Shown one piece after another: positions 1 to 53,929 of a stretch of 64,000 bases of DNA. Both the position numbers and the translations under genes were made by a program. Numbering within the stretch: position 1 is the stretch's first letter; every line of letters starts with the position of its first letter. This DNA comes from Chromatiales bacterium (lineage in GTDB: Bacteria > Pseudomonadota > Gammaproteobacteria > JAGRCI01), in assembly GCA_020445565.1 (NCBI GenBank), contig JAGRGI010000021.1, forward strand, positions 4,089 to 68,088. The letters are read 5' to 3'. A model generated the notes under the pieces. That model was not told where the DNA came from, did no database searches, and saw only the letters and a program-made list of their open reading frames with translations.

Positions 1-1636
1 ACAGGGCGCGATCGAAGGCCCTAAGGCCATCGGTTTCATCCGCGGCGGCATTGACCTCGTCCACCAGATACGGATGGCAGCGCATGGCCCCCTGCCCGAA
101 CACGATCATGCTGCGGGTGAGAATATTGGCGCCTTCGACGGTGATGCTGACGGGAATCGACCGGTAGGGAATCGCCAGGTAATTGCTAGGCCCCATGCAG
201 ATGCCCTTGCCGCCGTGTATGTCCATCGCATCGTTGATGGTCTGCCGGTAACCTTCGGTGAGGTGGTACTTGACCATGGCCGAGACCACCGAGGGCCGCT
301 CGCCCTGGTCCAGCGCCGAGGTGGTGAGGGTGCGTGCCGCATCCATGCGATAGCTCCAACCGCCGATGCGCGCCAGAACCTCCTCCACCCCCTCGAAATA
401 ACCGATGGGAAGGCGAAACTGTTTGCGAATCCGCGCATAGGCGCCGCTGGTGCGCGCCGCCAGCTTGCCAGCTCCCGCGCCCAGGGCCGGCAGCGAGATG
501 CCGCGGCCGGTGGCCAGGGACTCCATCAGCATGCGCCAGCCATCCCCTACCCTTTGCGGGCCACCGATCACCCACTCCATGGGCACGAACACGTCCACGC
601 CCCGGTTGGGGCCGTTCTGGAAAGCGGCCCCGGGGTGATGTCGGCTGCCGATCTCCACGCCCGCCGTGTCGGTGGGGATCAGGGCGCAGGTGATGCCAAG
701 GTCTTCGTTTTCGCCCAAAAGATGATCGGGGTCGAACACCTTGAAGGCCAGCCCGAGTACGGTCGCCACCGGGCCCAGGGTGATGTAGCGTTTTTCCCAA
801 CTGACGCGCATTCCCAGTACTTCCTGGCCTTCGAAATGGCCCTGGCAGACAATGCCCACGTCTGGAATCGACCCGGCATCGGAACCGGCGGTGGGACCGG
901 TGAGGGCGAAACAGGGTATCTCCTCGCCCCGTGCCAGCCGCGGCAGGTAGTAATGCTTCTGCACCTCGGTGCCGAAGTGCAGCAGCAATTCGCCGGGCCC
1001 CAGGGAGTTGGGCACCATTACCGAAACACCGGCGGTTCCGGATCGGGACGAAACCTTCATCACTACAGAGGAATGGGCCAGGGCGGAAAAACCGTGGCCG
1101 CCGTATTCCTTGGGGATGATCAAGCCGAAGAACCGGTGCTTGCGCAGAAAGGCCCAGACCTCCGGCGGCAGATCGTTGCGTTCCTCGTTAATGTGCCAGT
1201 CGTCCAGCATGGCGCAGAGTTCTTCCACCGGACCTTCCAGAAACGCCCTTTCCTCGGCTTGCAAACGCGGCTTGGGGATTTCAAGCAGCTTGTGCCAGTC
1301 CGGTTCGCCGCGGAACAGCTCGGCCTCCCACCATACGGTACCGGCCTCGATGGCGGTGCGTTCGGTCTGTGACATCGGCGGCAACAGTCGCCTTACCCGC
1401 TCCAGAAGAGGACGGCTCAGAATGGCGCGACGCAATGGGGAAATGCCTAGCGGCAGCAGCAGTAGGGCAAGGATCGTGGCCACCGCGCCGGTTGCGGCGG
1501 GCATCAGGCCGGTGAAAAAACCCAGTGCGGCGATACCGACCAGCATGGCAAACCAAAACGGCGCAGGCAGCCTGCGTTTCGCCAATACCCACAAGCCCAG
1601 CGCGATCAGAAGGACAGTGACCGGAATCGCGATCAT
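1..1636 (-). CDS. fadE: Acyl-CoA dehydrogenase, large E. coli FadE type, with N-terminal membrane segment; 3' end runs off the window
   Basis: My own minus-strand translation from the ATG at 1636 gives [16 protein letters not shown]...[14 protein letters not shown]...[17 protein letters not shown]..., typical of FadE/YafH. It is missing from the ORF track because no stop codon lies in the window. The plus-strand ORFs 74..1372 and 969..2198 are antisense artefacts. Confidence 0.8.
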
Positions 1637-1646
1637 GGTTCTCCTC

Positions 1647-2273
1647 CTAGTCCGAAGGCGGCGCTGCCAACCCCGCGGACACGTAGTTCACCAGGTGCCT
1701 CTCCAGGGCGCCGGGATCAGCGTTCGGCTCCAGGCCGGAGGATGCAATCAGGCGCATCACGTCGGTACCGGCCATACAATAGGCCAGTGTGCCCAGCATG
1801 AAATGCAAACGCCAGTGCAACTCCTGCGCAGGCAGATCCGGCAAGGCCCTGGCGAACGCGGGCTTGAAGCGGGCGATGACCTCCGTATAAGCCGCACGCA
1901 TCCATCCGTGCACCTCGTGAGAAGGTTCGCTGTAGCTTCGTCCCAACAGGCGCACGAAGCGTTCGCCACCCGGATCGCGACTCATCGCCAGGGCCGGGGA
2001 GATATAGGCCCTAACCAGGGCCTCCAGGGGAATCTCCATCCCGCTCCTCTCCAGTTCGTCCAGGCACCGCAGGCGTTCCCGATTCATCGGCAGCAAACGC
2101 CGTTCGAAGACCGCCGCCACCAGGGCCTGCTTCGATCCAAAATGGTAGCTGACCGCGGCCAGGTTCACCTTGGCCTCTCCGGTAATCGCCCGCAATGAGG
2201 TAGTCTCTATCCCCTGTGCCGCAAACAAGTCCTCGGCAGCATTGAGGATCGCCTCTTTGGTATCGGACGCCAT
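1647..2273 (-). CDS. TetR/AcrR-family transcriptional regulator upstream of fadE
   Basis: 208 aa. The N-terminal HTH reads [43 protein letters not shown], a TetR signature. It sits 10 bp upstream of the fadE start and is co-directional with it. Confidence 0.85.
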
Positions 2274-2287
2274 GGCAAAGGATATAG

Positions 2288-2305
2288 TTCAAACGTTTGT
2301 TTGAA
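2288..2305. promoter_or_regulatory. Perfect inverted repeat TTCAAAC-N4-GTTTGAA, candidate TetR operator overlapping the tetR-fadE promoter
   Basis: ttcaaacgtttgtttgaa is a 7-bp perfect dyad with a 4-bp spacer, 15 bp upstream of the tetR start codon. Confidence 0.35.
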
Positions 2306-2331
2306 TCAAGTCCGACGAAGGCTCTCGGTTG

Positions 2332-2336
2332 AAGAT
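2332..2336. repeat. Left 5-bp target-site duplication AAGAT
   Basis: aagat lies immediately outside the left IR. The identical pentamer lies outside the right IR at 8408..8412. Tn3-family elements make 5-bp duplications. Confidence 0.75.
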
Positions 2337-2374
2337 GGGGTCGTCTCAGAAAACGGAAAAAATCGTACGCTAAG
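2337..2374. repeat. Left terminal inverted repeat (38 bp) of the Tn3-family transposon
   Basis: ggggtcgtctcagaaaacggaaaaaatcgtacgctaag. The tnpA stop codon lies inside it, as is usual for Tn3-family elements. Confidence 0.85.
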
Positions 2375-5336
2375 CCGGTTTCAAGGGCCGTAACGGCCTG
2401 AATTTGCCCGAGCCGGTCCTAGTGCTACTGCGCCAGACATAGTCGCCGGTCAGGTTGATATGCTCCCAACCCAGCGGAGACAGATACCGTAGCAGCCCGT
2501 CATCGACTGTTTGGCCGTGGTCACGCAAGGCATTCACGGCACGCTCCAGATAGACCGTGTTCCATAACACGATGGCTGCCGTCACCAGATTGAGGCCGCT
2601 GGCGCGATAGCGTTGCTGATCGAAGCTGCGGTCACGGATTTCGCCCAAGCGGTTGAAGAAAACTGCGCGGGCCAGCGCGTTGCGCGCCTCACCCTTGTTC
2701 AGCCCTGCATGCACGCGGCGGCGCAGCTCGACACTTTGCAGCCAGTCAAGCATGAACAGCGTACGCTCAATGCGACCCAGCTCGCGCAGAGCAACGGCCA
2801 AGCCGTTCTGGCGTGGATAGCTGCCGAGTTTTCGGAGCATCAGCGAGGCCGTTACTGTGCCCTGCTTGATCGAAGTCGCCAGCCTTATGATTTCATCCCA
2901 ATGGGTGCGAATCCGTTTCATGTTGAGCGTGCCGCCGATCATCGGTTTCATCGCGTCATAAGCGATATCATTTTTCGGGATGTAAAGTTTGGTCTCGCCC
3001 AGGTCTCGGATGCGCGGGGCGAAGCGGAAGCCCAGTAGGTGCATCAGCGCGAACACATGATCGGTGAAGCCCGCCGTGTCGGTGTAGTGTTCCTCGATTC
3101 GAAGGTCGGATTCGTGGTAGAGCAAGCCATCGAGCACATAGGTTGAGTCACGCACGCCGACGTTCACCACCTTGGTATGGAACGGCGCGTACTGATCGGA
3201 GATGTGCGTGTAGAACGTTCTTCCGGGGCTGCTGCCGTATTTCGGGTTGATGTGGCCGGTACTCTCGGCCTTGCTACCGGTACGAAAGTTCTGCCCATCC
3301 GACGATGAGGTGGTGCCATCACCCCAAGGCTCGGCGAAGGGATGCTGTATTTGGGCATTGACCAACTCGGCCAGCGCCGCCGAATAGGTCTCGTCGCGGA
3401 TATGCCAGGCCTGCAACCAGGAAAGCTTGGCATAGGTCGTGCCTGGACAGGACTCGGCCATCTTGGTCAGGCCCAGGTTGATCGCATCCGCCAGGATCGT
3501 GGTCAGCAACAAGTGCTTGTCCTTGGCCCGACCGCCCGTTTTCAGGTGCGTGAAATGACGGGTGAAGCCCGTCCACTTGTCGACCTCGATCAGCAGTTCT
3601 GTGATCTTGACATGCGGCAGAATCATCGCCGTCTGGTCGATCAGCGCCTGTGCATTGTCGGGCACCGCCGCATCCAGCGGCGTGACCTTCAGGCCAGATT
3701 CCGTAATGATGGCGTCGGGAAGTTCGTCAGCCAGCGCCATGCGGTTGATTGTTCCGAGCTGCGCTTCCAGAAGCGTCAACCGGTCATGCAGGTATTGATC
3801 ACAGTCGGTGGCGACGGCCAGCGGCAGTTCACCGGCCTGCTTGAGGTTGGCGAATTCCGTGGGTGACACCAGGTAATCCTCGAAGTCCTTGAACTGTCGA
3901 GAGCCTTGCACCCAAATATCACCCGAGCGCAGCGCATTCTTCAATTCTGACAACGCGCACAGCTCGTAGTAGCGCCGATCGAGGCCGCTGTCGGTCATCA
4001 CCAGTTTCCGCCAGCGCGGTTTGATGAAGGTGGTGGGTGCATCGGCTGGAACTTTTCGGGCGTTGTCCCTGTACATGCCGCGTAGCACCTCGATCGCATC
4101 AAGCACACTGACGGCGGCAGGCGCAGCCCGCAGCTTGAGCACGCCAAGGAAATTCGGTGCGTAACGTCGCACTGTGGCGTAGCTATCGCCGATACGGTGT
4201 AGAAAATCTAAGTCCTCGGACTGCGCGAGCTGCTGTGCTTCGCTGACACTCTCAGCGAACGCTTCCCAGGGCATGACGGTTTCAATGGCGGCGAGCAGAT
4301 CGCCGCCGGTCTGCTTGGCCTCGATCAGTGCCTGACCAATGCGCCCGAACAGCCGCACCTTGGCATTGATCGCTTTGCCGGACGCCTGAAACTGCCGCTG
4401 ATGCTTGTTCTTGGCGACGTTGAACAGTTTTCCCAGGATGCGGTCGTTCAGATCGATGATTTCGTCGATAACGGTGGCCGTGCCCTCGATGGCCAGCGCT
4501 ACCAAAGTTGCGTAGCGCCGCTGTGGCTCGAACTTGGCGAGATCAGCCGGTGTCATCTGGCCGCCCTCGAGGGCGATCTTGAGCAGCCGGTTTTGGTGCA
4601 CCAGACGTTCGATGCCGGAAGGTAGGTCGAGGATCTGCCAGACCTTGAGGAGTTCGATGTGTTCCAACAGGTACCGAGAATTTGGTCTCGCCGGCGACTG
4701 GCGTAACCAGGCCAGCCAAGTCGTCGTGCCGCTATCCCGGCGTTTAAGCAGATCGTCGAGACCGCGGCGATGCGCGCTCGACAGCGGTTTGCCCAACGCG
4801 GCGTGGATGCGCCGGTTGGCACTGGTAATCGCCTCGGCACAGACGCGCTCGACAACATCCAGTGTCGGAACGATGACGTGGCTGTGCCGCAGCGCGTCAA
4901 TGACACTGTGTGCAAGTACAACGCCCTTGTCCGTTTGCATGGCCAATTCCGTCGTGGCATGGACGGCCTGACGAAAGTCCGCCAAACCGAACGGCTCGAC
5001 GCCCAGATAGGCTCGTAATTCGAGCAGGTGCTCGCGCCGGGTTTCCTCGCGCTCGGCGTACTGCGGCCAACATGCCGGGTCGAGCTGCAACTGCCGTCCG
5101 ATCCATTGCAGCAAAAACATCGGCACGGTAGCGTCGGGCAGCAAGCCCTGGCCGGGAAAGCGCAGCAAGCACAACTGAACCGCGACACCCAGTCGGTTGG
5201 CATCGCCGCGGTGCTGGCGGATCAGTGACAGGTCGGATTCGCTAAACGTGTAATGACGGATGAGTTCGTCTTGGGTATCGGGCAATGCCACGAGGCTGTC
5301 GCGCTCGGCGGCGGAGAGGATCGAACGGCGGGGCAT
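2370..5336 (-). CDS. tnpA: Tn3-family transposase TnpA
   Basis: 988 aa. The C-terminus carries the Tn3 TnpA signature ...[29 protein letters not shown]... and the stop codon lies inside the IR. Confidence 0.95.
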
Positions 5337-5487
5337 GTATTTCTTGTTCTTGAAAACGTAGGTTTACGAGAAGTCAGTCGAGGCGATTGGTGTGGCTATA
5401 AAAATCAAGGAGTTGCGGTTCTCAAAAAGGATTCTTGAAATACTATTCTCGATTGCCTATTGCCTCAACGAGTTTCGATAAGAAGCA

Positions 5488-5727
5488 GTGACCCGCTTCC
5501 GTACGGCGAATCCACGCGTGTTTGGGTCAGTGCTACATGGCACTGACCGCGATGGCAGCGACCTCGACCTGCTGGTCGATGCACTGCCTGGCGCCACGTT
5601 GTTGGATTTGGGCGATTTGGAAGAAGAATTGAAAACGCTGCTGGGTGTTGACGTCGATTTGCTGACCCCCGGCGACCTGCCGCTGAAGTTTCGGGCCAAA
5701 GTGCTCGCGGAGGCGCAACCGGTATGA
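5488..5727 (+). CDS. mntA: MNT-type nucleotidyltransferase antitoxin (MntA-like); looks N-terminally short
   Basis: The sequence NPRVFGSVLHGTDRDGSDLDLLVD contains the GS...D.D nucleotidyltransferase motif. It has a GTG start with an in-frame stop 3 codons upstream and is only 79 aa. It overlaps the hepT start by 4 bp (ATGA). Confidence 0.6.
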   Translation: MTRFRTANPRVFGSVLHGTDRDGSDLDLLVDALPGATLLDLGDLEEELKTLLGVDVDLLTPGDLPLKFRAKVLAEAQPV

Positions 5728-6115
5728 GCGAGGACAATCGGCTACCCGACTACCTCGACCACATTCAACAAGCCGCGGTCGATATGCGCGCAGCTTCGTC
5801 GAGGGGCTGGTCAAGGATGATTTCCTGGCGGATAAGCGCACGCAGCAAGCCGTCATCATGAGCCTCATCATCATTGGCGAGGCCGCCACGAAGGTGATAG
5901 ACGGCTACGCTGAGTTCACTGAAGCCCATGCCGACGTGCCGTGGCGCAGTATGCGCAACATGCGAAATCGCATGGCCCACGGCTATTTCGACATCGACCT
6001 CGAGGTGGTGTGGGAGACGGTACAGGATTGGCTGCCGGCGTTGCTTAAGCAACTGCCCGCCGTGCAGCAAGCGGCCGCGGACGAAGTCGACACCGGGAAA
6101 GGCACGGAGTCATGA
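5724..6115 (+). pseudogene. hepT: HepT-like HEPN toxin (DUF86) interrupted by a +/-1 frameshift near 5790
   Basis: Frame 1 from ATG 5724 reads MSEDNRLPDYLDHIQQAAVDMR... and stops at 5861. A second frame reads ...SFVEGLVKDDFLADKRTQQAVIMSLIIIGEAATKV...RNRMAHGY... to 6115, with the R-x4-HxY HEPN motif in RNRMAHGY. The two halves join into one HepT-length protein only if a single base is added or removed. Confidence 0.5.
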
Positions 6116-6158
6116 TTGATTTCCGAGCCGACCGTAGTGCTCCCTGTCGGGATACGTC

Positions 6159-6731
6159 ATGCTGATCGGATATGCCCGTGTTTCGACGCAGGATCAGAAC
6201 CTTGAACTGCAACGCAAAGCCTTGACCAGGGCGGGATGCGAAAAGGTCTGTGAAGACAAGGTGAGCGGTACGCGTGCCGAACGGCCTGGATTGGCCAAGG
6301 CCCTCGACATGCTGCGCGAGGGCGACACCTTGGTCGTCTGGAAACTTGACCGGTTAGGCCGGTCGGTCAAGCATCTGGTCGGCCTGGTAGGCGACCTGCA
6401 CAAGCACGGCGTGCAGTTCAAGAGCCTGACCGACGCCATCGACACCGGCACGCCATCCGGCCGGTTTTTCTTTCACGTCATGGCCAGCCTCGCCGAGATG
6501 GAGCGCGAACTGACGGTCGAGCGTACCCGGGCCGGATTAGAAGCCGCCAAGCAACGCGGCCGCAGAGGCGGCCGTAAACCGAAGATGACCGACAGTAAGA
6601 TCGAGTCGGCCAAAAAGCTCCTGGCCAGCGGCGTGCCACCGAAAGACGTGGCCAGGAATCTGGGCGTTTCCGTTCCGACGCTTTACCGCTGGGTACCGGC
6701 ATCGGCGAACACCCATGTTCGGAAGGAATAG
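6159..6731 (+). CDS. tnpR: Serine recombinase / resolvase TnpR
   Basis: 190 aa. MLIGYARVSTQDQNLELQ... carries the catalytic Ser motif, and a C-terminal HTH is present. This is typical of Tn3-family resolvases. Confidence 0.9.
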   Translation: MLIGYARVSTQDQNLELQRKALTRAGCEKVCEDKVSGTRAERPGLAKALDMLREGDTLVVWKLDRLGRSVKHLVGLVGDLHKHGVQFKSLTDAIDTGTPSGRFFFHVMASLAEMERELTVERTRAGLEAAKQRGRRGGRKPKMTDSKIESAKKLLASGVPPKDVARNLGVSVPTLYRWVPASANTHVRKE

Positions 6732-6927
6732 CGACCGTCTCGCGGTTCCTCGGAACCAACACAATGTTTCGTCGGCAACCGGCCATTTCCAGCCATTTCG
6801 ACCAAGCAAGGTTACATCCGCTTTCCGGTCACCGGGAGGTGCATCGTGAGCTTGGGGATGTTCATCAAGACCGTCCGCCATCCTCGATATCCGGGATCAG
6901 GGTTCGCTGAACTGCCTGAGTCGGCTT

Positions 6928-8109
6928 CTAAAGTCTGGGCTTCAGCACGAAGAATACATAACCGAAGTCTCCGTCAACCTGCCTCTTGAGCATAGGCATT
7001 TCCCGGTCAAGAGCGGCTAACGCTTCTGACCCAGGCATCTGATCCCTGATTTCATCGAGACGTTGCGCAAGTGGCTCACAATAGTTCGCCCAAGCTGCGT
7101 CACTGATGGTGTGGGTTCCGATGAGATCATAAGCCAGGGCGTCAACCTGCTGTTTCCGCTGTCGAAGGCTGGACATGTCAGGATACTCAGCTTGCCAGTA
7201 TGCCTTTACATCGGACTTCGGATGGTCGTTCAGCCAGACCAAGTCACTTATGACCGACACGCCATCAAGTCGCAAGAGAGCCTTCCAGATGGTCAAAGCG
7301 CGTTCGAAGCCAATGACGTAGGCGCTGTTCTCACACCAGATGAGGTCAAACGTTCTCTCCTCGAACGGTGGCGCATCCATGCTCCCGTTAACTGTGTCGA
7401 TACGCGACTCAAGGCTCTCCTCAATGGCTCTCTTGGCGAGCCTCTCAAGGCTTTGGTCGAGGTTGTCCAATGCATGAACGTGGGCCTGTGTGTGCTTTGC
7501 CAGCAGCAGGGTGGCATTGCCCGGGCCGGATGCCATGTCGAGGATTGACGTCGGTTCAATGGGGACCAGGTCGAGGGCAGCCAACGTATCCTCCTCGCTC
7601 GCAGGTCCATGGGTGTCCAGAGGTTCGAATATGGTCAGGAAGTCCCGCATGTAAGCCTCGTGCTGCGTGTAATCATGAGACAACCACCTCAGTCGGTAGA
7701 TGTCATCGTCGGTGAAGCCTTCTCGTCTCAACCAGTCCGCATGAGCCTTGGGTGCAACGAGATCGAGCCTTTCGTGGAAGGATCGCAGGTGGTCCTTACG
7801 CTCCCCGAGCAGTGCCTCCAGCAGCTGCTTGGCTTGCTGCTTCTCTTCGATCTCGTCGGTGATCTCTCCGAGCCTCTGCCGCAACAGCTCTCTGTCCATA
7901 CCCTTGCTGAAGAACGTTTTGCATTCGTTCAGTGTCAATCCACCGGACTGTAGCGCCTTCACCAGCTGGAGGCGCTGAAAGTCTTCTTCGCTGTAGTCCC
8001 GGTAGCCGTTCGCCCTCCGGCGACCACGGATCAGTCCGAGCTTCTCGTAGTAGAGGAGCGTGGTCCTCGAGAGCCCGAGTCTGGCCGCGAGTTGGGAGAT
8101 TCGGTACAT
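6928..8109 (-). CDS. Fusion protein: N-terminal MerR-family HTH, coiled-coil linker, C-terminal class I SAM-dependent methyltransferase (transposon cargo)
   Basis: The N-terminus MYRISQLAARLGLSRTTLLYYEKLGLI is a MerR HTH. The C-terminal half has MTase motif I ILDMASGPGN, post-I HALD and motif II FDLIWCENS. Total length is 393 aa. Confidence 0.8.
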   Translation of the reverse strand: MYRISQLAARLGLSRTTLLYYEKLGLIRGRRRANGYRDYSEEDFQRLQLVKALQSGGLTLNECKTFFSKGMDRELLRQRLGEITDEIEEKQQAKQLLEALLGERKDHLRSFHERLDLVAPKAHADWLRREGFTDDDIYRLRWLSHDYTQHEAYMRDFLTIFEPLDTHGPASEEDTLAALDLVPIEPTSILDMASGPGNATLLLAKHTQAHVHALDNLDQSLERLAKRAIEESLESRIDTVNGSMDAPPFEERTFDLIWCENSAYVIGFERALTIWKALLRLDGVSVISDLVWLNDHPKSDVKAYWQAEYPDMSSLRQRKQQVDALAYDLIGTHTISDAAWANYCEPLAQRLDEIRDQMPGSEALAALDREMPMLKRQVDGDFGYVFFVLKPRL

Positions 8110-8135
8110 GCGTCTTCGCCTAACGATTCAGGGGG

Positions 8136-8166
8136 ATCGTAGAGTGTAGAGCGGTAGACAAGTCAA
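8136..8166 (-). promoter_or_regulatory. MerR-type promoter with 19-bp spacer (TTGACT-N19-TACGAT) upstream of the MerR-methyltransferase gene
   Basis: The minus strand reads ctccTTGACTtgtctaccgctctacactcTACGATcccc, about 27 bp before the ATG. A 19-bp -35/-10 spacing is the hallmark of promoters remodelled by MerR-family regulators. The spacer contains TCTAC three times. Confidence 0.5.
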
Positions 8167-8369
8167 GGAGTCACAGGCAACTACCTGTGCGACCATCCGG
8201 AGGAAACGACGGCTCGGGGTCGGTAACGGACTGAGAGGCGCGCAAGCTTGGAGGTCCGCAAAGGTCGCATGGCTGCCTATTGCAGTGCACCAATCTGAGC
8301 CGTAAGTCGGTTGGCTGTTCCATTGCTCCCCTAACCCAAAGCTCAGGCCGCTAAGACCCTTGAAATCGG

Positions 8370-8407
8370 CTTAGCGTACGATTTTTTCCGTTTTCTGAGG
8401 GGACCCC
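8370..8407. repeat. Right terminal inverted repeat (38 bp) of the Tn3-family transposon
   Basis: cttagcgtacgattttttccgttttctgaggggacccc is the reverse complement of the left IR with 2 mismatches. Weaker similarity continues about 26 bp further inward on both sides. Confidence 0.85.
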
Positions 8408-8412
8408 AAGAT
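8408..8412. repeat. Right 5-bp target-site duplication AAGAT
   Basis: Identical to 2332..2336. Confidence 0.75.
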
Positions 8413-8754
8413 CATCTGCTCACCCACCTTGGATTGTGCCGCAATTTCGGCTAACGCCAAGCTTAGCTGAAACCAGAACTTGGAATCCTGATGAGGGGCA
8501 CTGCGTTAGAGAGCGATAGATGTGAATCACGGCGCGGCCCAAGGGACCGAAAAAATGAGGGGATGTGGAGCTGGGCGACCGGCCAAAGGCGCCAAAACGG
8601 GGGGGCGTAGGATTACCCACGCCACGATCAAGTACGCTTTACAGCCTCAAAGTTTCTGTCCACCCTTGCCACAGAATCGACACAGAAAGGCTTTGTCTAC
8701 GTGGGTTTGCCAAGTTTTCCACGACGCTGTGTCAACAGCGCCGTGGAATTCAAG

Positions 8755-9027
8755 TTACCAGCGCGATCCGCGAGATGGGCGTTCTCCGCGAGGTTTAGCC
8801 TGATTCACCTTCAAACTGCGACCGCCCATGGGAGTGCCGTTGAGGCCCTTGATAGCCGAATCAGCCGAAGCATTATCCCCCATTTCCACAAAGGCAAAGC
8901 CCTTGGATTGGCCAGTGGCCATGTCGGTTATCAGATTAACGCTGGATACCTCACCAAAAGCGGAAAAGGCTTCGCGAAGCTCGTCTTCATTCGCGCTATA
9001 CGGTAAGTTGCCGACGTAGATATTCAT
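8755..9027 (-). CDS. RRM (RNP-1) glycine-tailed RNA-binding protein
   Basis: MNIYVGNLPYSANEDELREAFSAFGEVSSVNLITDMATGQSKGFAFVEM carries RNP2 (IYVGNL) and RNP1 (KGFAFVEM). The start is taken at the internal Met, because the track's longer N-extension is atypical. Confidence 0.75.
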   Translation of the reverse strand: MNIYVGNLPYSANEDELREAFSAFGEVSSVNLITDMATGQSKGFAFVEMGDNASADSAIKGLNGTPMGGRSLKVNQAKPRGERPSRGSRW

Positions 9028-9475
9028 AAGATTAATGTTCCAGGTCTGTGTGCTGCGAAAAAGATGCACTACCGTGGAGCCAACACACAAAACGCGATAG
9101 TGATTTGCCATTGCTGGCGAATTCGTTCGGCTCGTCGTTTAACCGACATTGCATGAGGCTTCGGATTGAGGAGCGAGCAAGGTGGTGTTTTCAGGCGTGA
9201 GCAGTGAGATTTCAAGTAGGGGCCTACCTCATCCTAGTGAGGATTGGGAACATCGAGTGTTTCCGAACAAAAGGCGGCCTTGGACGCTGCTCGGCGATCC
9301 GGTGCCTGAAACGTATACTTCATTAGGGCCAGTTGACTTGAACCCAGGCAAGACGGCAGTGGCACAACGAAATCGCCAAGGAAAGAGAGACGCCTCTCGC
9401 TTCGCAAAACAGGGTATGATCATCGACCAATAGGGTCGAAACCAATCCGTGGGAAGATAGGGACTCGATCTCAGT

Positions 9476-9679
9476 TCAAACCACTTGGAGATTGCGGGCA
9501 GAAGGTCCTTTGGGACCGTCCTGTATTTCGAAAGTTACCTGTTGATTTTCCATCAGCGTTCGCATGCCTGCACCCGTGACCGCGCTCTGATGAACGAAAA
9601 CATCTTTGCCGCCATCATCGCGAGCGATGAATCCGAAACCTTTGGCTTCGTTGAACCATTTTACTTTTCCGGCAATCAC
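9476..9679 (-). CDS. Cold-shock protein, CspA family
   Basis: 67 aa. [18 protein letters not shown]...DVFVHQSAV is a cold-shock domain with the RNP motifs. Confidence 0.9.
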
Positions 9680-9786
9680 ACTATACCCTCATGGCCGACG
9701 ACCGCGCTGGAAGCTGAGGTAACCAGTTTTGCTGTTGTGCATCCATAGGCCACCACTCCTGATTGGTGGCCTATTCGCAAAGCTAA

Positions 9787-10134
9787 CTACCGCTGGGGAT
9801 AGGGTACGGCCGGTCCCTGAGGAACGCCGTAACCTTGTGGCGCCATACCGGCGCCCGGGTATCCCATTCCGGGGTAGCCGTACGCCGGCATACCGTAACC
9901 GTTACCGGGATAACCATATCCATACCCCGGATAGCCATAGCCCTGGCCGGTACCGTAACCGTTACCGCGCCCGGACATCGACATGTTCATATCGCCCATC
10001 ATGTCGCCCATGCCATTGCCCATACCGTTCCATGGTCCGTTACCCCACCAGGCATTGGCGGCGGTGGCGACAAAGACGCCCGGTACGGCGATAGCAAGAG
10101 CGAAAACTTTATTGCGAAAATTGGAAATTGCCAT
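9787..10134 (-). CDS. Small secreted Gly/Tyr/Pro- and Met-rich low-complexity protein (sulfur-globule-protein-like composition, or Met-rich metal-binding)
   Basis: The signal peptide is MAISNFRNKVFALAIAVPGVFVATAANA. The mature part reads WWGNGPWNGMGNGMGDMMGDMNMSMSGRGNGYGTGQGYGYPGYGYGYPGNGYGMPAYGYPGMGYPG. The start is placed at the internal Met that gives a canonical signal peptide. Confidence 0.6.
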   Translation of the reverse strand: MAISNFRNKVFALAIAVPGVFVATAANAWWGNGPWNGMGNGMGDMMGDMNMSMSGRGNGYGTGQGYGYPGYGYGYPGNGYGMPAYGYPGMGYPGAGMAPQGYGVPQGPAVPYPQR

Positions 10135-10685
10135 CTGATCACTCCGAATCGTTTGCAAGAATGCCAGCAATCTCGACTCAGTCCAAACAACCGAATCGAA
10201 AAACTTATAGAGATATGCCCTATACCGGCACGTCCTGCGCTGGCCGCGAATTGAAACCTGCGTGCACCAATACGTCGGCTGGTAGGTGAACCTTTACCCA
10301 GACTAGCGGCAATACAAGATTGCATGAGTCACGCAGACGCGATCGGCCGCATTCCGACTTGTCTGGAAGCGCCATGCAGGCTTTGTGGAAATCGCCTGGC
10401 TGGGAGTTTCGAAACGGAGTAGGAAGGATGTCGAACAGACTCAACATACGCTTGTCTAGGCAACAGTACAAGCGGAGCAGGCAAAATCCCTTGGGCGACT
10501 GGCTTGCCTGCTATGGAGTCCCCAGCAATCGTTCAGCAGAAGGGCAATGAGGAAGGACTCGAAAGACCTCATCTCCAGCCACCGCAGATTCCCCTAAAAT
10601 CGGCTCTCAAACATTGGGAGCAATGTTTCAATTGGGAATGCCCTTGGAAAGGATTTTTGCCAACTTGACCGGCATACCCGACGGC

Positions 10686-12413
10686 TCATGCCTGCGCCGC
10701 GTCCGCTGCCACGGGGAGGTTGAGCTCAAACCAGAACTCCGAACCTTGATCGGGAACGCTTTCGACGCCGATCTGCCCACCCATGAGATGCACCAGTTTC
10801 GCCGCGATGGCCAAGCCCAGGCCCGCACCGCCGAATTCCCGGGTGTTGGTGTTATCGACCTGGGAAAACGGTTGAAACAGTTTGTCCTGCTTGTCCGTAG
10901 CGATACCGATTCCGGTGTCTCGGACGCCCAACCTCAGCCCGCTAAATCGTTCGTCTCCGACCAAGGAAGTGACCGACACCATGATTCGTCCGTGCCTGGT
11001 GAACTTGGCCGCGTTGTCCAATAATTTAATTAATATCAATTGGATACGCTTCGAATCTCCTAGAAATAGTCGAGGCAGATCGGGAGGATAGTGAAATTGA
11101 ACTTCGATTTCCCGGTCCCGCGTCCAGTTGACCAAAAGGTTGGTCACTTCGGCCACGCTAAGGTACAAATCGAAAGGCAGTTGGGCGAAAGACACTTCGC
11201 CAGTATCCAAACTGGAAACCTCCAGGACATCGTCGATCAGCGTTAGCAGCTTCTTACCGGACTGATGGATCAACTTGGCCCGGTGGTGTTGCTTGGGGTC
11301 TGAGGCGTCGCGCAGAAGAATATCGGAAACACCGAGAACGCCATTCAATGGTGTACGCAACTCATGACTCATGGTGGTCAGGAAGGCGCTCTTGGCGCGC
11401 AGGGCGGCCTCAGCCTCGGCCCTCGCCTGCAATAACTCCTTCTCGTAACTCCGACGTTGGGTGACTTCCCGCTCCAATTCCTGGTTTTTCATTTGCAGGG
11501 CTTGTTCCTGCCGTCTTGCTTCCTCAACATGGGCTTGCAGCACGCTATTGCGTGTGTACATCCGCACACCCGTCCAGGCGCCAAGGAAAATCAGCGCCGC
11601 CAGTACCACAAGAGCGACGCTGAACCAGCGCTCCGCGAACAAGGCGCTCAGACCGCTGGCAGAAAATCTTCCCAGGATTTCGAAGGGCGTGTCGGCAACC
11701 GCAACTCGCCCGACAATGCTCCCCTGCCCGGTCTGCCAGACGCCAACCTCGCCAGTGACCGTTTCCAAACCCTTGGGGTAGACATCGCCCGCAATGTGTA
11801 AAGCCACCTTGCCGGCAAGGGTCTCCGAGTCGGCGGCAATCAAACGTTCATGGGCCGGGCGGTAGTTGATCCAGGCCAGCAGGTGCCCGACAACCGCGTT
11901 CTTGTAGGCTATGGGCGTAGTCACAAGGACCTGCTTTCTGCCAGTATGCCCCAGCGCAAGCACCTGGGCGTCATTTGGATCAAGTGCGAGCCCTCCCGGC
12001 AACGTTTGTCCGGGTTTGGTATCGACAAGCACGTTGCCGTCCGGTTCGCGAAACACCAGACGCTCGTAGACCGGCTGCCCGGCGAACGGATGTCCCTTGA
12101 CCAGGTCCAGAAAGGCACGCCGCATCTTCAGCAGGCTGGCGCCCAGACCATATTGCAAGGACATGCCCAACGCGCGATTGGCAAAATAGGTGGTCACGGA
12201 ACGATGCTCGGCCATGGCGCCCAAGTCGTCCCTTCGAACACTGTAGAAATACGACAGAGCTGCGGCGCGTTTCTCCAGGCTCAACCGGTATTGCTCAAGA
12301 TCCGCGGCCTGCCGCGCCCGCTGTTCATATTGAGTGATCGCAAGCAGAAGCAGGACGTAGGCGAACAGCAGACTGCCAAGAACGATGGGTAGCCAACTCT
12401 TCGCCTTCGTCAT
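10686..12413 (-). CDS. Membrane sensor histidine kinase (periplasmic sensor, HisKA, HATPase_c; no receiver domain)
   Basis: An N-terminal TM segment is followed by a large periplasmic region and a second TM. The H-box is TMSHELRTPLNGVLG, and the G boxes are GGAGLGLAIAAKLVHLMGG. Confidence 0.85.
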   Translation of the reverse strand: MTKAKSWLPIVLGSLLFAYVLLLLAITQYEQRARQAADLEQYRLSLEKRAAALSYFYSVRRDDLGAMAEHRSVTTYFANRALGMSLQYGLGASLLKMRRAFLDLVKGHPFAGQPVYERLVFREPDGNVLVDTKPGQTLPGGLALDPNDAQVLALGHTGRKQVLVTTPIAYKNAVVGHLLAWINYRPAHERLIAADSETLAGKVALHIAGDVYPKGLETVTGEVGVWQTGQGSIVGRVAVADTPFEILGRFSASGLSALFAERWFSVALVVLAALIFLGAWTGVRMYTRNSVLQAHVEEARRQEQALQMKNQELEREVTQRRSYEKELLQARAEAEAALRAKSAFLTTMSHELRTPLNGVLGVSDILLRDASDPKQHHRAKLIHQSGKKLLTLIDDVLEVSSLDTGEVSFAQLPFDLYLSVAEVTNLLVNWTRDREIEVQFHYPPDLPRLFLGDSKRIQLILIKLLDNAAKFTRHGRIMVSVTSLVGDERFSGLRLGVRDTGIGIATDKQDKLFQPFSQVDNTNTREFGGAGLGLAIAAKLVHLMGGQIGVESVPDQGSEFWFELNLPVAADAAQA

Positions 12414-45185: not shown

Positions 45186-48100
45186 ATGTCCGAGTACCTG
45201 GACACCCTCGCCAGCTACGTCCCCTCCTGGGTGCTCGCCCGCTCCACGCGGGAAACGCATGCCTGTAGCGAACATTTCGAGGCCGTCGTCCTGTTCGCCG
45301 ACATCTCGGGCTTCACCCCCCTGACCGAGCGCTTCGCGGCCGCCGGCCCCGAGGGTGTGGAGGAATTCACCCGCATCCTCAACGATTACTTCGGCCAAGC
45401 CATAGAGCTGCTTGCCGAGCACGGTTTCGAGGCCACCAAATTCGCCGGGGATGCGCTGTTATCGGTGGCGATCTACACGGGCAGTTCGGAATGCAGCACT
45501 ATGCTGGCCCGCCACGCGGACGCGGCCTTGGCGCTGCAAAGGGCCCTGCACGGCTATCAGGCGGGCGCGGACGTAGTGCTTTCCATGAAGATCTGCCTGG
45601 GAATCGGCCCGCTGGTAGGACGATTCCTCGGCGGCCTGAGCAAACGCTGGGAATTCACCATCGCCGGCGAACCCCTGTCCCAGGTGGGCAGGGCCGACAA
45701 GCATGCCCGGCCAGGGGACATCGTACTGTCGCCGCAGGCCAGGCTTTGCCTTGGCACAAAGGCATGGGGAGACACCCTGGAGGCTGGGCATTTGCGTCTG
45801 CTCGGGGTCAAAGACTTCCAACGCGGGCAAGCACTGCCCCTGCCCGTCCCCGATCCGGGAACTGAATCCGTATTAGAAGGTTTCGTCCCCGCCACCGTGC
45901 GCTCGGGGCTGCGCGCCGGCCACGCCGACTGGCTGGGCGAGCTGCGCCAGATCTCGGTGTTGTTCGTCAATCTGCCCGATCTGCACGCCGACACCCCCCT
46001 GAATACGGCCCAGGAGATGTTCACCAGCCTGCAAAGCGCGCTCTACCGTTACGACGGCAGCGTCAATAAACTCAGCGTGGACGATAAGGGGGTTTCTTTG
46101 CTGGCGGTCTTCGGACTGCCACCACGCTCCCACGAAGACGACGCCGAGCGGGCCGTGCTCGCCGCCCTGGCTATGAGCCACAACATTCAGGAGGCGGGTC
46201 TGCGCTGTTCCATCGGCATCACCACCGGCCGGGTCATCGCAACCGCCGTTGGCAACAAACGCCGCCGCGAATACACCATCATGGGCAATGTCGCCAACCT
46301 GGCGGCCAGGCTGATGCAAGCGGCCAATGGCGGGGTTCTTTGCGACGAGCCCACCTGGCGGCAGGCCCGTGATCGCCTTCGTTTCGCGGAGCTGGGCCCG
46401 ATACGGGTAAAAGGCCGCTCCGAGGCGATCCCCATCTATCAGCCCCTACCCCAGTCCGAGTCTCGCGACGACACTGGCCCCCGTTCGGACCAGGGTTCGC
46501 TGGTGGGTCGCGTCGAGCAGATGCACGCCTTGCGCTCGGCCCTGCGTGACTGGCTCGCCAACCCGGATGCCAAGCCGACGCCATTGGTGCTGGAGGGCGA
46601 GGCCGGTATCGGCAAATCCCGCCTGCTGCGGGAACTGGCCGCGCAAGGCCGGGCGCTGGGTGCAAGGGTGGTGCGCGGCGGCGGCGACCCCATTGATGCG
46701 GACACACCCTATCACGGCTGGGCACGAATCTTTGCCACCCTTTTGCATGGCGGATCAGACCATGAAGCGGTAGTGCAGGCACTCACGAACGACCAGGAAT
46801 TGCACAATCTCGCGCCACTTCTGGAAGTCGTCCTGCCATCCAACTGGGGGGACAACGACACCACCGCGAAGCTCCAGGGCGCGGAGCGCGCCCGCGCCAT
46901 TCAGCGGCTGTTGATCGGCATCCTGCGCGAGGCTGCCGGCCAGCAACCCCTGTTGCTGATTCTCGACGACGGCCAGTGGATGGACCCGGCCTCCTGGGAA
47001 TTGCTGCTGGCGATGCACAGAGAACTTCCCCAAGTCCTGATCGCTCTGGCGATTCGCGACGGTACACAACCCGCGGAACCGGTCGCACAGTGGCTCGCGC
47101 AGTCCGTGCCACAACGCATTACACTCGGCCCGCTGCCCAAGGACGAGATTCTGGAGCTGGCCCGCGACCGCCTGGGTTTGAACCAGCTTCCACCCCAAAC
47201 TGAGCGAATCATTCTCGAAAAGGCCGGCGGCAACCCCATGTATTGCGAAGAACTGGCGCGGGGACTGCCCACGGCCACCGATATCGCCGGTATTCTGGAC
47301 TACCTGCAAAAGGCCGAGGTGCCCGACTCGGTACAAGGACTGATCACCGCCCGCCTGGACCGCCTTCCTTCCGAGGCCCAGTTCACCCTCAAAGTCGCCA
47401 GCGTCTTGGGACGGGTCTTCGGCCTGGACGAGCTCAACGCGGTTCACCCGAAACACCCCGCGCAGGGTTACCTTGACGGCATGTGCCGCAGCCGGCTGGC
47501 CCCTGACCTCAAACCCACCGGCGCCCATAGCCCCGGCCCCGTTGGCGTTAGCGGCCACTATCGGTTCCGCAATCCACTCACCCTGGACGTCGCTTACGGC
47601 CTGATGCTGTTTGCGCAACGCCGCCAGCTACACCGCCAAGCCGCCGAGTGGCTAGAAGAGCGTCTGGACGAAGGACACGTCTCCACCTATGCCCTGCTCG
47701 CCCATCACTGGGCGGGCGCAGCCAGCGGAAACAGCCCGGAGGCGCAGGCCCTGGTCAAGGCGGTTAGCTACAGCGAACTGGCGGCCGACGCCGCCCTGCG
47801 CGACTTTGCCAACCGCGAGGCCGTCAGTTTTCTGCAACGGGCGCTGGACCTGCTTTCGCGCCAGGCGGAAAGCCCGGAACGTGACGCCGACGAACTGCGA
47901 CTACTCCTCAAGCTAGGCGGTCCCCTGGTCACCATCTACAGCTACGCCGAGCCGCGGGTGGCGAATGCCTATCGCCGTGCCCGCGAGCTTTGCGATCACC
48001 TCGGCGACCACAGCCGCTTGTTCGATACCCTGCGCGGCTTGTGGCAGTTTCACATCGGCGACTCCGACTACGACAATGCCGCCAGCCTCGCCAGAACCCT

Positions 48101-48995
48101 GTTGGAAATCGCCGAGGCCGACGGCGACCTGGACCGTCGCGCAGAGGCCAACCGCGCCCTGGGCAATACCGTATTCTGGACAGGCGATCTGCAAACCGCG
48201 CGCAAGGCAATGGAGAACGCCGTCGCCCTCGCGGCCCAATCCACCAGCGCCGACCGCACGGACGAATACGGGCAAAACCCCGACGTCGCCAATCACGGCA
48301 TGCTGGCCTGGACGGTCTGTTTAAGCGGCTACCCCAAAGACGCAATTCGCCACGCCGGCCTATCCCTGCAACTCGCCCAGACCTCCGGCCACCCCTTCAG
48401 CCTTGCCTTCGCCTGTGGCGTGCACATGTGGATGTACCGGCTTCTGGATGACGGCATCCAAACCCTGGGCTGGGCCGACCGCACCCTGGAACTCACCGAA
48501 GCCAACGGTTTCCCCTACTTCAGTACCGCCGCCCGCGTCCTGCGCGGTTGGGGCCGGGCCAGAAACGGCGAAGGTAAAGCCGGCCTGGAGGAAGCCCTAT
48601 CCGCCGTCACCGCCTGGCAGGAGATGGGCCAGGAAATCGGTGTGCCGGTATTCCTCTACGCCACCGCAGATGCCGCCCAGCTGGCCGGCGACTCCCAACA
48701 AGCGCTGACACTGCTCCGCCACCCCACCCTCACCGCCCGAACCCACAAAGAACGTTGGTACCTGGCCGATTTGCGGCGAATTGAGGGAGAGTGTCATTGG
48801 CAGTCGGGCGGACGAGAATCAGCCTTGCTGGCTTGGAGAGAGGCTTTGCAGGTAGCGCGGGAGCAGAGCGCGCGCTTGATCGCTTATCGTGTCGCGCATA
48901 TGGCTCGGAATTATGGCCTAAGAGATGATGAAATTGGATTGAGAAAAGCGGATTTGGAGATTCCTCAGCCAATAACAAATCCGCATTTCGACTGA
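45186..48995 (+). CDS. Multidomain signalling protein: two adenylate/guanylate cyclase (CHD) domains + STAND/AAA ATPase + TPR repeats
   Basis: CHD1 reads [16 protein letters not shown] and CHD2 reads [10 protein letters not shown]...[15 protein letters not shown]. Walker A is [16 protein letters not shown], followed by long TPR-like helical repeats, 1269 aa in all. Confidence 0.85.
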
Positions 48996-49126
48996 TTTTC
49001 AAACCAGAAATTAGCTGTCGAAACTGCCGCACCGAATCCGCTGCAAAAGCATTCTGAGATACTCGTCACACAATCGGTAAGTGTTACTGGTCTACAATAC
49101 AAAGCAAATTTGATGGATGCGGTATA

Positions 49127-49156
49127 CCGCATGCAACGCCTACCTGTTGCATGCGG
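49127..49156 (+). promoter_or_regulatory. Perfect 11-bp inverted repeat CCGCATGCAAC-N8-GTTGCATGCGG in the AT-rich leader of the large-protein operon
   Basis: This is seen directly. It lies ~135 bp upstream of the likely ATG at 49293, inside an AT-rich segment (48996..49292) that contrasts with the ~65% GC surroundings. Confidence 0.3.
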
Positions 49157-49292
49157 TCATTCCGAACATTCCAGGAATGCGACAGTTTCGGACTATATAA
49201 GGTTTTCTGGGACAAAATTCGGCTTTCGTCCCCGAAAGGAATGCCAGCAAACCGGCAAATGCACGCGATGCTTTGGAATTGAGAACCTCAGG

Positions 49293-53030: not shown

Positions 53031-53844
53031 ATACGCTCCCTGGATTGCGGGTGCTCTCATAGTGTGGGCGCAGACCGCTCTCGGCGCGGAATCTGCCGTT
53101 GTCGCGAAGCATTTCCGTTTCACCTACAGCGCAACCAACACCAGTAGCCAAACGATTTCCGAGGCGGATATACGTGTTCCGATTCCGCAACGGAAAACCC
53201 CCTATCAGACCCGAGTCGACGTCAGCTCCAGCCTTCCAATCACGGCCACAGGAGTAGACTGGGCAGAGGTGAGAGTCCCGGCGACTCCCCCCTTCGGGCG
53301 AGTCGATTTCCTATTGAATGTGAGCATGTCCTTCGAACGCGAAGCCAAAGCGGAACCTGCCGACAAAGCCTATTTGCAAGGCGAGCGCTTTATCGAAAAG
53401 GACGACAATAAAATCCGCTCGACAGCCCTGCGACTGATGAAAGGAAACGACACCAGATCGACCCTAAGCAATCTCTATCGCTGGGTAAGAACATCTCTCC
53501 GCCCGCTCGGCTACACGGCAAACCCCCGAGGCGCCCTTCAGGCGTTCCAGTCCCGCCAGGGCGACTGCACGGAATACGCCCTTTTGCTCACGGCGATGGC
53601 CCGGTCCATTGGCATCCCTGCGCGTGTCGCTGAAGGCTATGTCTATCGTGAAAGCGCGAGAATTCGCCCAACCGACTACCACAACTGGGTGGAAGTCCAA
53701 ATTGAAGGCACTTGGTTTCCGGTGGATACCTACGAAGGCAGGTTCCTGGACAGGACAAGCGATTACTTGGTGATGAACTACTGGGGTAGTCAGATAATGC
53801 CCGGCTTTGTCAAATTGAGAGACTGGATTGTACGGCTTGAGTAG
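53017..53844 (+). CDS. Secreted transglutaminase-like cysteine protease (Transglut_core / BTLCP-like; Cys-His-Asp)
   Basis: The signal peptide is MLLNKYAPWIAGALIVWAQTALGA. The core motif is QGDCTEYALLLTAMARSIGIPARVAEGY...DYHNWVEVQIEGTWFPVDTY. His lies at Cys+38 and Asp at His+15. It overlaps the upstream gene by 14 bp. Confidence 0.75.
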   Translation: MLLNKYAPWIAGALIVWAQTALGAESAVVAKHFRFTYSATNTSSQTISEADIRVPIPQRKTPYQTRVDVSSSLPITATGVDWAEVRVPATPPFGRVDFLLNVSMSFEREAKAEPADKAYLQGERFIEKDDNKIRSTALRLMKGNDTRSTLSNLYRWVRTSLRPLGYTANPRGALQAFQSRQGDCTEYALLLTAMARSIGIPARVAEGYVYRESARIRPTDYHNWVEVQIEGTWFPVDTYEGRFLDRTSDYLVMNYWGSQIMPGFVKLRDWIVRLE

Positions 53845-53859
53845 AAGTGCTCTAGCTGA

Positions 53860-53881
53860 TTCATTACTTTTTCATTACTTT
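53860..53881 (+). repeat. Perfect tandem direct repeat TTCATTACTTT x2, 48 bp upstream of the giant-protein ATG
   Basis: ttcattactttttcattacttt is two exact 11-bp units, possibly a response-regulator-type tandem site. Confidence 0.35.
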
Positions 53882-53929
53882 CAAGAAGCACATCCACGGT
53901 GGCGAGATCAAACGATTTAGGAAACTAAA

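Follow-up and report, generated by a model that had tools for sequence, protein, structure and literature searches.

The 64,000-nucleotide stretch analysed here (contig JAGRGI010000021.1 of a Chromatiales bacterium, positions 4,089 to 68,088 of the forward strand; hereafter the window) contains a Tn3-family transposon, and on it a gene in which a MerR-type winged helix-turn-helix (HTH) domain is joined to a class I S-adenosylmethionine (SAM)-dependent methyltransferase (Table 1). A model-generated reading of the letters (the original prediction) had proposed this architecture at these positions, and it proved accurate to the base when judged by the open reading frame (ORF), by Pfam matches and by the sequence. 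The gene is transcribed towards the resolvase gene of the transposon.

Table 1. Window positions of the fusion gene, its promoter and the transposon that carries them (aa, amino acids; pLDDT, predicted local distance difference test).
Feature	Position	Strand	Basis or remark
MerR-methyltransferase fusion gene	6928..8109	-	393 aa plus stop; longest ORF of its neighbourhood
MerR winged-HTH DNA-binding domain, aa 2-67	7909..8106	-	PF13411, E 2e-19, profile positions 1-66 of 69; PF00376, E 6e-11
Long helix, aa 73-100; presumed MerR-type dimerisation coiled coil	7810..7893	-	single helix in AlphaFold2 model, pLDDT about 90
Family-specific helical connector, aa 101-147	7669..7809	-	invariant H112, A119, P120, L127, G131, S144
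Class I SAM-dependent small-molecule methyltransferase domain, aa 148-393	6931..7668	-	PDB profile matches and Foldseek
MerR-type promoter/operator	8136..8166	-	TTGACT 8166-8161; 19-nt spacer TGTCTACCGCTCTACACTC 8160-8142; TACGAT 8141-8136
Target-site duplication AAGAT, left copy	2332..2336		read from the sequence; identical to right copy
Left terminal inverted repeat GGGGTCGTCTCAGAAAACGGAAAAAATCGTACGCTAAG	2337..2374		similarity to right end continues to 2401
tnpA, Tn3-family DDE transposase, 988 aa	2370..5336	-	PF01526 E 8e-159 and DUF4158; NCBIfam transpos_Tn3 1257 bits
MNT-type nucleotidyltransferase antitoxin gene, 79 aa	5488..5727	+	PF01909/PF18765; 94% aa identity to pFBAOT6 MNT
hepT (HEPN/DUF86) toxin gene, frameshifted near 5790	5724..6115	+	PF01934 E 3e-17, profile positions 32-118 only
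tnpR, serine resolvase, 190 aa	6159..6731	+	PF00239 E 2e-49 and HTH_7
Right terminal inverted repeat	8370..8407		similarity to left end from 8343
Target-site duplication AAGAT, right copy	8408..8412		minus strand ATCTT directly outside GGGG

The fusion protein was modelled as a monomer with AlphaFold2 from an alignment of 25 family members, with a mean pLDDT of 92.7, a predicted TM-score (pTM) of 0.76 and no segment below 50. The modelled chain consists of an HTH and wing (residues 1-69), a long helix (73-100), three short helices (105-144) and a C-terminal alpha/beta methyltransferase with helical inserts (148-393). Three methyltransferase profiles of Pfam fall on residues 187-304 (Methyltransf_25, E 1e-12; Methyltransf_11, E 4e-9; Methyltransf_31, E 2e-7), and PF09278 (MerR-DNA-bind) reaches 22.7 bits on residues 45-99, slightly under its cut-off of 25.4 bits. 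Used as a profile, the 25 members align with CueR, MtaN and TipAN through the coiled-coil region and also match EcmrR. Their alignment has 56 invariant columns, and the recognition helix, SRTTLLYYEK, is almost invariant across the family. Of the 89 columns with 95% conservation or more, three differ in the window protein (L83I, G193A and G326A); other divergent members differ at zero to seven. The connector between the two halves has no Pfam match and is missing from the stand-alone Bacteroides enzymes described below, whose alignment begins at about residue 148. Since H112, A119, P120, H123, W126, L127, G131, F132, W142 and S144 are invariant or nearly so, its conservation suggests a specific role in coupling the MerR and methyltransferase halves.

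The original prediction had called such a fusion unusual, a description that does not fit its distribution: a scan that took one genome per species confirmed at least 586 encoding stretches, mostly in marine Gammaproteobacteria, and there are plasmid copies besides. A protein search that scored 8,000 candidates gave 223 significant matches; of the 120 listed, almost all are about 390 aa long, with the same MerR and methyltransferase Pfam content and 44-66% identity. The genera among the matches listed are Vibrio, Photobacterium, Aliivibrio, Shewanella, Ferrimonas, Endozoicomonas, Psychromonas and their relatives. Family members also lie on secondary replicons of Vibrio and Pseudoalteromonas and, at 42% identity, on plasmids of Proteus, Morganella and Providencia from clinical and farm sources. 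The window allele sits in a small branch of higher GC content found only in metagenomes, with the homologues P0002, P0003 and P0004 (66%, 58% and 53% identity); the best isolate-genome match among those listed is from Ferrimonas marina (52%). Public annotation labels these proteins only as 'MerR family transcriptional regulator' or 'methyltransferase'. We found no publication on a MerR-methyltransferase fusion in the open-access literature, a scope that makes this absence no proof. One stand-alone homologue (L089) was used for a Rosetta-stone comparison and has no MerR neighbour.

The relatives of the methyltransferase domain are clear. Compared with the PDB, the family profile matched a set of Bacteroides structural-genomics proteins far above all else (E 6e-52 to 2e-46; profile positions 148-388, nearly the whole chains), namely BVU_3255 (3t7r/s/t, 3e7p), Q5LES9 (3kkz) and BT_2972 (3svz/3sxj/3t0i, 3f4k), and the matched crystal structures include forms bound to SAM and to S-adenosylhomocysteine (SAH) (3t7r/3t7s/3t7t, 3svz/3sxj/3t0i, 3kkz). 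The single sequence of the fusion protein finds the same enzymes at E 6e-30 to 8e-24, and Foldseek places the modelled domain on 3kkz, 3t7s and 3svz with a target TM-score of 0.85-0.90 and a root-mean-square deviation of 2.1-2.6 Å. The next tier of profile matches, at E 1e-17 and weaker, comprises phosphoethanolamine N-methyltransferases, RebM/AtmM, TleD and MitM, all of which act on small molecules. By profile and fold, then, the domain belongs with the BVU_3255/BT_2972/Q5LES9 small-molecule enzymes. These are true homologues of residues 148-393, at 23-28% identity, and have in common with them the motifs GPGS, GxG, D, SM, 'DLIWSE..Y', 'S(E/D)..W' and 'FW..Y(P)'; they differ in being stand-alone proteins of about 260 aa with no DNA-binding domain, and the homology transfers no function. 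BT_2972 binds SAM and SAH both in crystals and by isothermal titration calorimetry, and was classed by its authors as a small-molecule enzyme, the substrate being left undetermined; their suggestion of ubiquinone intermediates was a speculative proposal (PMC3225368).

The cofactor contacts reported for BT_2972 (PMC3225368) were transferred to the fusion protein through a HMMER alignment. Five of them correspond to residues that are invariant in the family: G168 (Gly27 in BT_2972), G195 (Gly56), D215 (Asp76, which contacts the ribose), M244 (Met105) and E260 (Glu121); G197 is also aligned with a SAM-contacting residue. The remaining two positions are where the window protein departs from its relatives. 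A193 stands opposite Gly54, a position that is glycine in 118 of 118 homologues, and S194 opposite Cys55, where cysteine is nearly invariant in the family. Motif I of the window protein thus reads LDMASGPG, with G195 and G197 kept and the first glycine changed to alanine, and apart from G193A and C194S the cofactor site of this allele has no notable change. Conservation is not confined to that site: W258, E260, Y264, S288, W292, Y309, W340, P346 and Y384 are common to the fused family and the stand-alone Bacteroides enzymes. Judged by this alignment the SAM-binding core is intact, and the original prediction of a methyltransferase that retains its cofactor residues stands, with deviations at just three of the 89 conserved columns.

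Its suggestion of an ArsM, TehB or UbiE type, by comparison, found no support in homology or structure searches, the nearest type being that of the Bacteroides enzymes. Characterised ArsM proteins bind As(III) through three to four conserved cysteines; the only cysteines of the enzyme domain here are C259 and C345, which are not kept across the family, where S/A and Y take their place, and no ArsM model is among the listed NCBIfam or Pfam matches of the window protein, so that we rejected this identity. TehB was rejected because PF03848 is not among the protein's Pfam matches at E <= 0.01; it occurs among the precomputed matches of only a few homologues. For UbiE/COQ5, PF01209 scores 20.7 bits (cut-off 20.1) yet covers only profile positions 47-120 of 233, and the NCBIfam UbiE models score 21-29 bits where their cut-offs are 158-351; this identity was rejected as well.

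The strongest of the results concerns the promoter. In the window the ATG follows TACGAT by 26 nt and is preceded by GGCGAAG, as read from the sequence, and the -35 element lies 57 nt from the start codon, within the family range of 52-118 nt. A TTGACT-N19-TACGAT motif is by itself weak evidence; a sigma-70 scan of 6600-8450 with 16-18-nt spacers found no site, and shuffles of the region average 0.6 sites. Comparison of the 90 nt upstream of 80 homologous genes, followed by a pattern search, gave the consensus TTGACC-TGTCTAyAGCTTyAyAGTT-TAnnnT upstream of the fusion gene at 78 loci, and the MerR-type promoter with a 19-bp spacer in the original prediction is therefore confirmed both by the sequence and by its conservation in the family. 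Information content averages 1.56 bits per position within the 31-nt core and falls to means of 0.20 and 0.17 in the 15-nt flanks on either side. The window site, TTGACT-TGTCTACCGCTCTACACTC-TACGAT, aligns with this consensus base for base, and its spacer variant is common to the closest homologues, P0002 and P0003. The sites of these nearest relatives read TTGACC-CGTCTACCGCTCCACACTC-TATTCT (L081) and TTGACC-TGTCTACGGCTGCACACTT-TACGTT (L082). The spacers of ordinary promoters are not conserved in sequence; this one is kept from Vibrio through Ferrimonas to a Proteus plasmid and so would look like an operator, putatively bound by protein between the -35 and -10 elements. A pattern search of the whole window found this single operator site.

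The putative operator has an imperfect dyad. When 64 unique sites were analysed with the centre set 8.5 nt into the spacer, a register which we take to be that of the CueR operator, five pairs were kept in most of them: A(-2):T19 in 60, C0:G17 in 55, T1:A16 in 56, T3:A14 in 62 and A6:T11 in 63. The same 64 sites showed no convincing compensatory changes. On this sequence evidence autoregulation of the fusion gene is well supported, and autoregulation by DNA distortion is a reasonable inference because of what is known of the MerR family.

Conserved gene order adds a probable partner. Clustering of the three genes on each side of the fusion at 79 loci yielded one recurrent neighbour, a gene for a GNAT acetyltransferase of 170-180 aa that lies immediately downstream on the same strand at 28 of them. 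On the Proteus vulgaris plasmid pLC-693_1 (NZ_CP063315.1; L088, 6001-7685), which encodes a family member of 42% identity with its GNAT partner, the two genes are 2 nt apart and the pair adjoins malic enzyme, adenylosuccinate-lyase-family and DcuC genes. The operator pattern, searched on both strands over about 1 Mb of flanks, had five extra matches, of which the two convincing ones both precede GNAT genes. In Vibrio ouci (L033, 7190-7792) the fusion is followed by a GNAT gene with the copy immediately in front of it; in Vibrio sp. HN007 (L045, 5381-7173) the genes come in the opposite order, with operator, GNAT gene and fusion gene in succession. These copies would put the GNAT gene under the same control as the fusion, and by pattern matching the operator appears to control the fusion gene together with any GNAT gene beside it, with nothing else detectable nearby. 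The transposon in the window has no GNAT gene.

Less regular neighbours offer weak hints of xenobiotic handling. RND efflux components lie near the fusion at a few of the 79 loci, P0002 is adjoined by nitroreductase and Eis-like acetyltransferase genes, and P0003 (L082, 2771-9730) has beside it a convergent gene for a 181-aa TPMT/TehB-like methyltransferase. On its other side P0003 has a gene for a 1,690-aa N6-methyltransferase/Eco57I/SNF2-helicase protein; its surroundings also include a resolvase gene and numerous small genes without annotation, and this region may be a mobile or defence island. As for the substrate, several aromatics and one acidic residue are among the positions shared with the stand-alone enzymes, and the partner gene encodes an acetyltransferase; these hints favour an organic compound, xenobiotic or metabolite, over a metalloid.

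The transposon is 6,071 bp long, its inverted repeats (IRs) starting at 2337 and ending at 8407. The AAGAT copies are the 5-bp target duplication expected from Tn3-family transposition and, together with the IRs, TnpA and the resolvase, they bear out the intact Tn3-family element that had been claimed for this locus. The inverted repeat 2336-2401/8343-8408 extends over 66 nt at 91% complementarity, the ends proper beginning GGGGTCGTCTCAGAAAACGG... from 2337. This similarity far exceeds the usual 38-bp IR, the right end carrying a copy of the left-end sequence that overlaps the 3' end of tnpA; the right-end copy at 8339-8400 matches Tn3-family ends on plasmids. The fusion gene is not the only passenger, as had also been claimed, since an MNT/HepT pair at 5488-6115, recognised by Pfam and called as genes on contigs L085 and L086, lies in the 820 bp that separate tnpA from tnpR. 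No defect is apparent in the MNT antitoxin gene, and its product gives a match to PDC-S09, a candidate defence family of PADLOC (E 2e-22). The longest intact hepT ORF (5858-6115) encodes 85 aa, against 128 aa for the DUF86 protein of plasmid pFBAOT6, and a tblastn match to that protein is split over two frames, with the first 22 or so codons in one and the rest in the other; the frameshift in the toxin gene sets the element apart from TnSod9/TnShfr1/ISPa38-type transposons.

In layout (tnpA< MNT> HepT> tnpR>) the element is identical to TnSod9 of the Tn21 subgroup, and such toxin-antitoxin pairs have been argued to belong to the transposition module (PMC7157771). The 38-bp GGGG... IRs and the 5-bp target-site duplication are those of TnSod9/TnShfr1/ISPa38-type elements. 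The tnpA gene is about 82% identical in nucleotide sequence to TnShfr1/ISPa38-type plasmid elements, and the backbone of tnpA, toxin-antitoxin genes and tnpR is 82-86% identical to elements on more than 1,500 plasmids (enterobacterial, Aeromonas and Pseudomonas). None of the listed TnShfr1/ISPa38-type plasmid relatives has a MerR-methyltransferase past tnpR, where they carry for example a cation transporter or tet(A) gene; the fusion gene is thus the distinctive cargo of an otherwise known kind of element. A megablast of plasmids with the window cargo matched the IR only, and blastn and tblastx of the cargo flanks (8110-8345 and 6701-6930) against all fetched loci matched at the promoter only. 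By tblastn, plasmids encode family members at up to 48% identity, none of them annotated inside a Tn3 element among those inspected. No terminator-like site was found between the convergent tnpR and fusion genes, and no Rfam family in window positions 1-12000.

The identical fusion protein is called on five metagenome contigs, and an exact-protein look-up returned L085, a contig with the window's own locus, and two others that stop within the IR, leaving no second insertion site demonstrable. L085 is 99.98% identical to the window over 5,454 nt, including the junction of the right IR with an RRM-protein gene, and this shared junction identifies the same organism and the same insertion. A scan of JGI metagenomes for close relatives found only stand-alone methyltransferases of 34-35% identity.

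Starting from the observed architecture, the intact SAM-site residues, the conservation of the promoter across the family, the link to GNAT genes and the integrity of the transposon, we lean, by a narrow measure, towards an autoregulated trigger enzyme: a single polypeptide that would both sense a small molecule and methylate it. The steps that follow, from ligand and DNA binding to distortion-based activation and catalysis, are framed for the fusion protein from its sequence and from the behaviour of its relatives. The MerR winged helix and coiled coil would dimerise, and the dimer would occupy the imperfect dyad inside the 19-bp spacer of its own promoter. While the ligand is absent the promoter would be poorly active, its -35 and -10 elements being out of phase. 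A small-molecule substrate, probably with SAM, could then bind the methyltransferase domain and cause the dimer to re-align the promoter, as in other MerR proteins. Induction would provide more of the same protein, by which the inducer would be methylated, and in about one third of family members the co-regulated GNAT acetyltransferase would be made too. A more specific version, which we put forward tentatively as a possibility, is that of a portable single-gene sense-and-modify cassette, in which occupancy of the active site by substrate and SAM would be relayed through the connector, a segment predicted to lead from the coiled coil into the N-terminal helices of the enzyme, and would switch the gene's own promoter. 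With sensor, regulator, enzyme and promoter contained in 1.3 kb, the unit would work wherever it lands, which would explain its role as functional Tn3-family cargo.

Precedents exist for parts of this scheme. An N-terminal winged HTH with a long coiled coil, and a -35/-10 pair 19 bp apart with an imperfect dyad in the spacer, are shared with MerR activators such as TipAL, BmrR, Mta, EcmrR and CueR. The fusion family differs from these in its effector, which is a complete class I methyltransferase and not a TipAS, GyrI-like or metal-binding domain, and in the conserved 47-residue connector, found only in this family. TipAL, which is likewise autoregulated, is the closest conceptual precedent, its effector domain both sensing and neutralising the inducer thiopeptides. 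Trigger enzymes with a DNA-binding domain (PutA, BirA, NadR and Ada, and the HTH-aminotransferases MocR/GabR) couple active-site occupancy to transcription, often of their own gene; no MerR domain or class I methyltransferase is known among them, and Ada, a suicide methyl acceptor, does not depend on SAM. MerR one-component regulators and Tn3-family cargo are of a kind already known; not described in the literature that we found are a complete SAM-dependent enzyme as MerR effector, an autoregulatory operator conserved throughout the family, and the GNAT partner.

Several points weigh against the trigger-enzyme proposal. The alanine and serine that replace the family's glycine and cysteine in motif I of the window protein could lower the affinity for SAM. 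Symmetry in the operator is weak: the window site is symmetric at inner positions only (TGTCTACC/GCTCTACA), and a second register is possible (CTAT-N6-ATAG). The operators of CueR, SoxR and MerR have dyad arms of 7-9 bp and are far stronger. Conserved enzyme residues are no proof of turnover, and the domain could bind its ligand without methylating it, much as the aminotransferase-like domains of MocR/GabR regulators bind ligand without turnover. Carriage on a transposon is no proof of a selected function either, hepT on the same element being already frameshifted. Finally, E. coli cells expressing BT_2972 did not become resistant to kanamycin, tetracyclines, erythromycin or chloramphenicol (PMC3225368).

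Some of these points bear on the main rival reading, which we regard as unlikely and which retains the regulator while dropping the chemistry. The methyltransferase domain would then be a sensor of SAM, SAH, the status of the methyl cycle or a metabolite, with no meaningful methylation, and the output would be transcription of the fusion gene itself and of the GNAT gene. The C-terminal domains of MerR proteins are normally pure sensors, and the highly conserved connector suggests transmission of a signal. The conserved cofactor site would suit a sensor, as would the G193A change unique to motif I of the window protein, and the Bacteroides homologues bind SAM and SAH with a large loop movement (PMC3225368). 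However, the residues held in common with the stand-alone enzymes extend past the cofactor site over the rest of the domain, as expected for an active enzyme. A detected regulon of the fusion and GNAT genes only would be a poor output for a global sensor of the methyl cycle, and a sensor that controls no effector gene would make no sense as the one functional cargo of a transposon without GNAT.

A different objection concerns the window copy alone: whatever the family does elsewhere, this gene might be a neutral or decaying hitch-hiker, captured by chance and of no benefit to the host. The frameshift in hepT, the two cofactor-site substitutions unique to this allele and the missing GNAT partner are in keeping with such a history, as are the lack of close relatives in the JGI metagenomes and the single clear genomic context. 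We nevertheless think it improbable, given a full-length ORF with only three, conservative, deviations at the 89 conserved columns, a promoter whose spacer length and distance to the start codon are preserved, and an identical protein in at least three independent sequencing samples. Methylation of a macromolecule, with the HTH targeting the enzyme to DNA, RNA or protein in a defence or epigenetic system related to mad1/mad2 of MADS or in an Ada-like self-methylating activator, is very improbable: PADLOC does match the HTH to mad1 (E 7e-10) and residues 173-295 to mad2 (E 5e-12), Cys63 of the MerR domain is invariant and P0003 adjoins its large N6-methyltransferase/helicase defence-type gene, but the mad2 match spans 126 of 492 profile positions in the generic Rossmann core, no other mad genes were found among the three transposon proteins scanned (fusion, MNT and HepT), the enzyme is a compact small-molecule type with helical inserts and no target-recognition domain, Cys63 occupies a position at which other MerR proteins have a buried hydrophobic residue, and the authors of the BT_2972 study reached their small-molecule conclusion from structure and resistance tests (PMC3225368). 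There is also no conserved (D/N/S)PP(Y/F/W) motif, the DAPPF of the window protein being 'TDLPF' in the family, and with PADLOC matches so generic and partial we rejected both MADS membership and a DNA methyltransferase reading.

MerR regulators serve as the textbook example of promoter distortion as a way to activate transcription, and the effectors known for them are domains that bind metals, drugs or cofactors. If the trigger-enzyme proposal is right, the family would add an enzyme-coupled branch to them: the first MerR regulator with a working SAM-dependent enzyme as effector, and possibly a new inducible determinant that modifies xenobiotics or antibiotics. Hundreds of natural variants and an almost invariant 31-bp promoter/operator would make a clean system in which to follow how active-site occupancy leads to DNA remodelling, and engineers would gain a small inducible part made of one gene. 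Whatever induces the promoter should moreover be the long-sought substrate of the BVU_3255/BT_2972 clade, for which structures have been available for over ten years but no function. The presence of the unit on a Tn3-family transposon and on plasmids of the Proteus group shows that it moves horizontally, which would matter if the substrate proves to be an antimicrobial.

The DNA into which the transposon has inserted is Chromatiales chromosome, and the window carries cysS, a gene for a DinG-like helicase, and chemotaxis and two-component signalling genes. The CysS protein has 100% identity to one assigned to a Chromatiales metagenome-assembled genome. The insertion lies about 60 nt upstream of a gene for a PsrA-like TetR regulator (1647-2273, minus strand; NCBIfam PsrA E 1e-47, below the cut-off), which it may have separated from its upstream sequences; a palindrome at about 2288-2305, TTCAAACGTTTGTTTGAA, resembles a PsrA-type operator. 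Opposite the TetR gene, on the plus strand, two long ORFs overlap within 74-2198 at 63-66% GC (74-1372, 432 aa, no Pfam or NCBIfam match; 969-2198, 409 aa), and at least one of them is probably not a gene. Just beyond the right IR lies the gene for the RRM-domain RNA-binding protein (8755-9111, minus strand; PF00076 E 8e-25). Further along, at 45186-62866, are three very large consecutive ORFs, which encode a 1,269-aa adenylate/guanylate cyclase with AAA_16, a 1,306-aa protein with a bacterial TSP3 repeat and a product of 2,978 aa (53930-62866).

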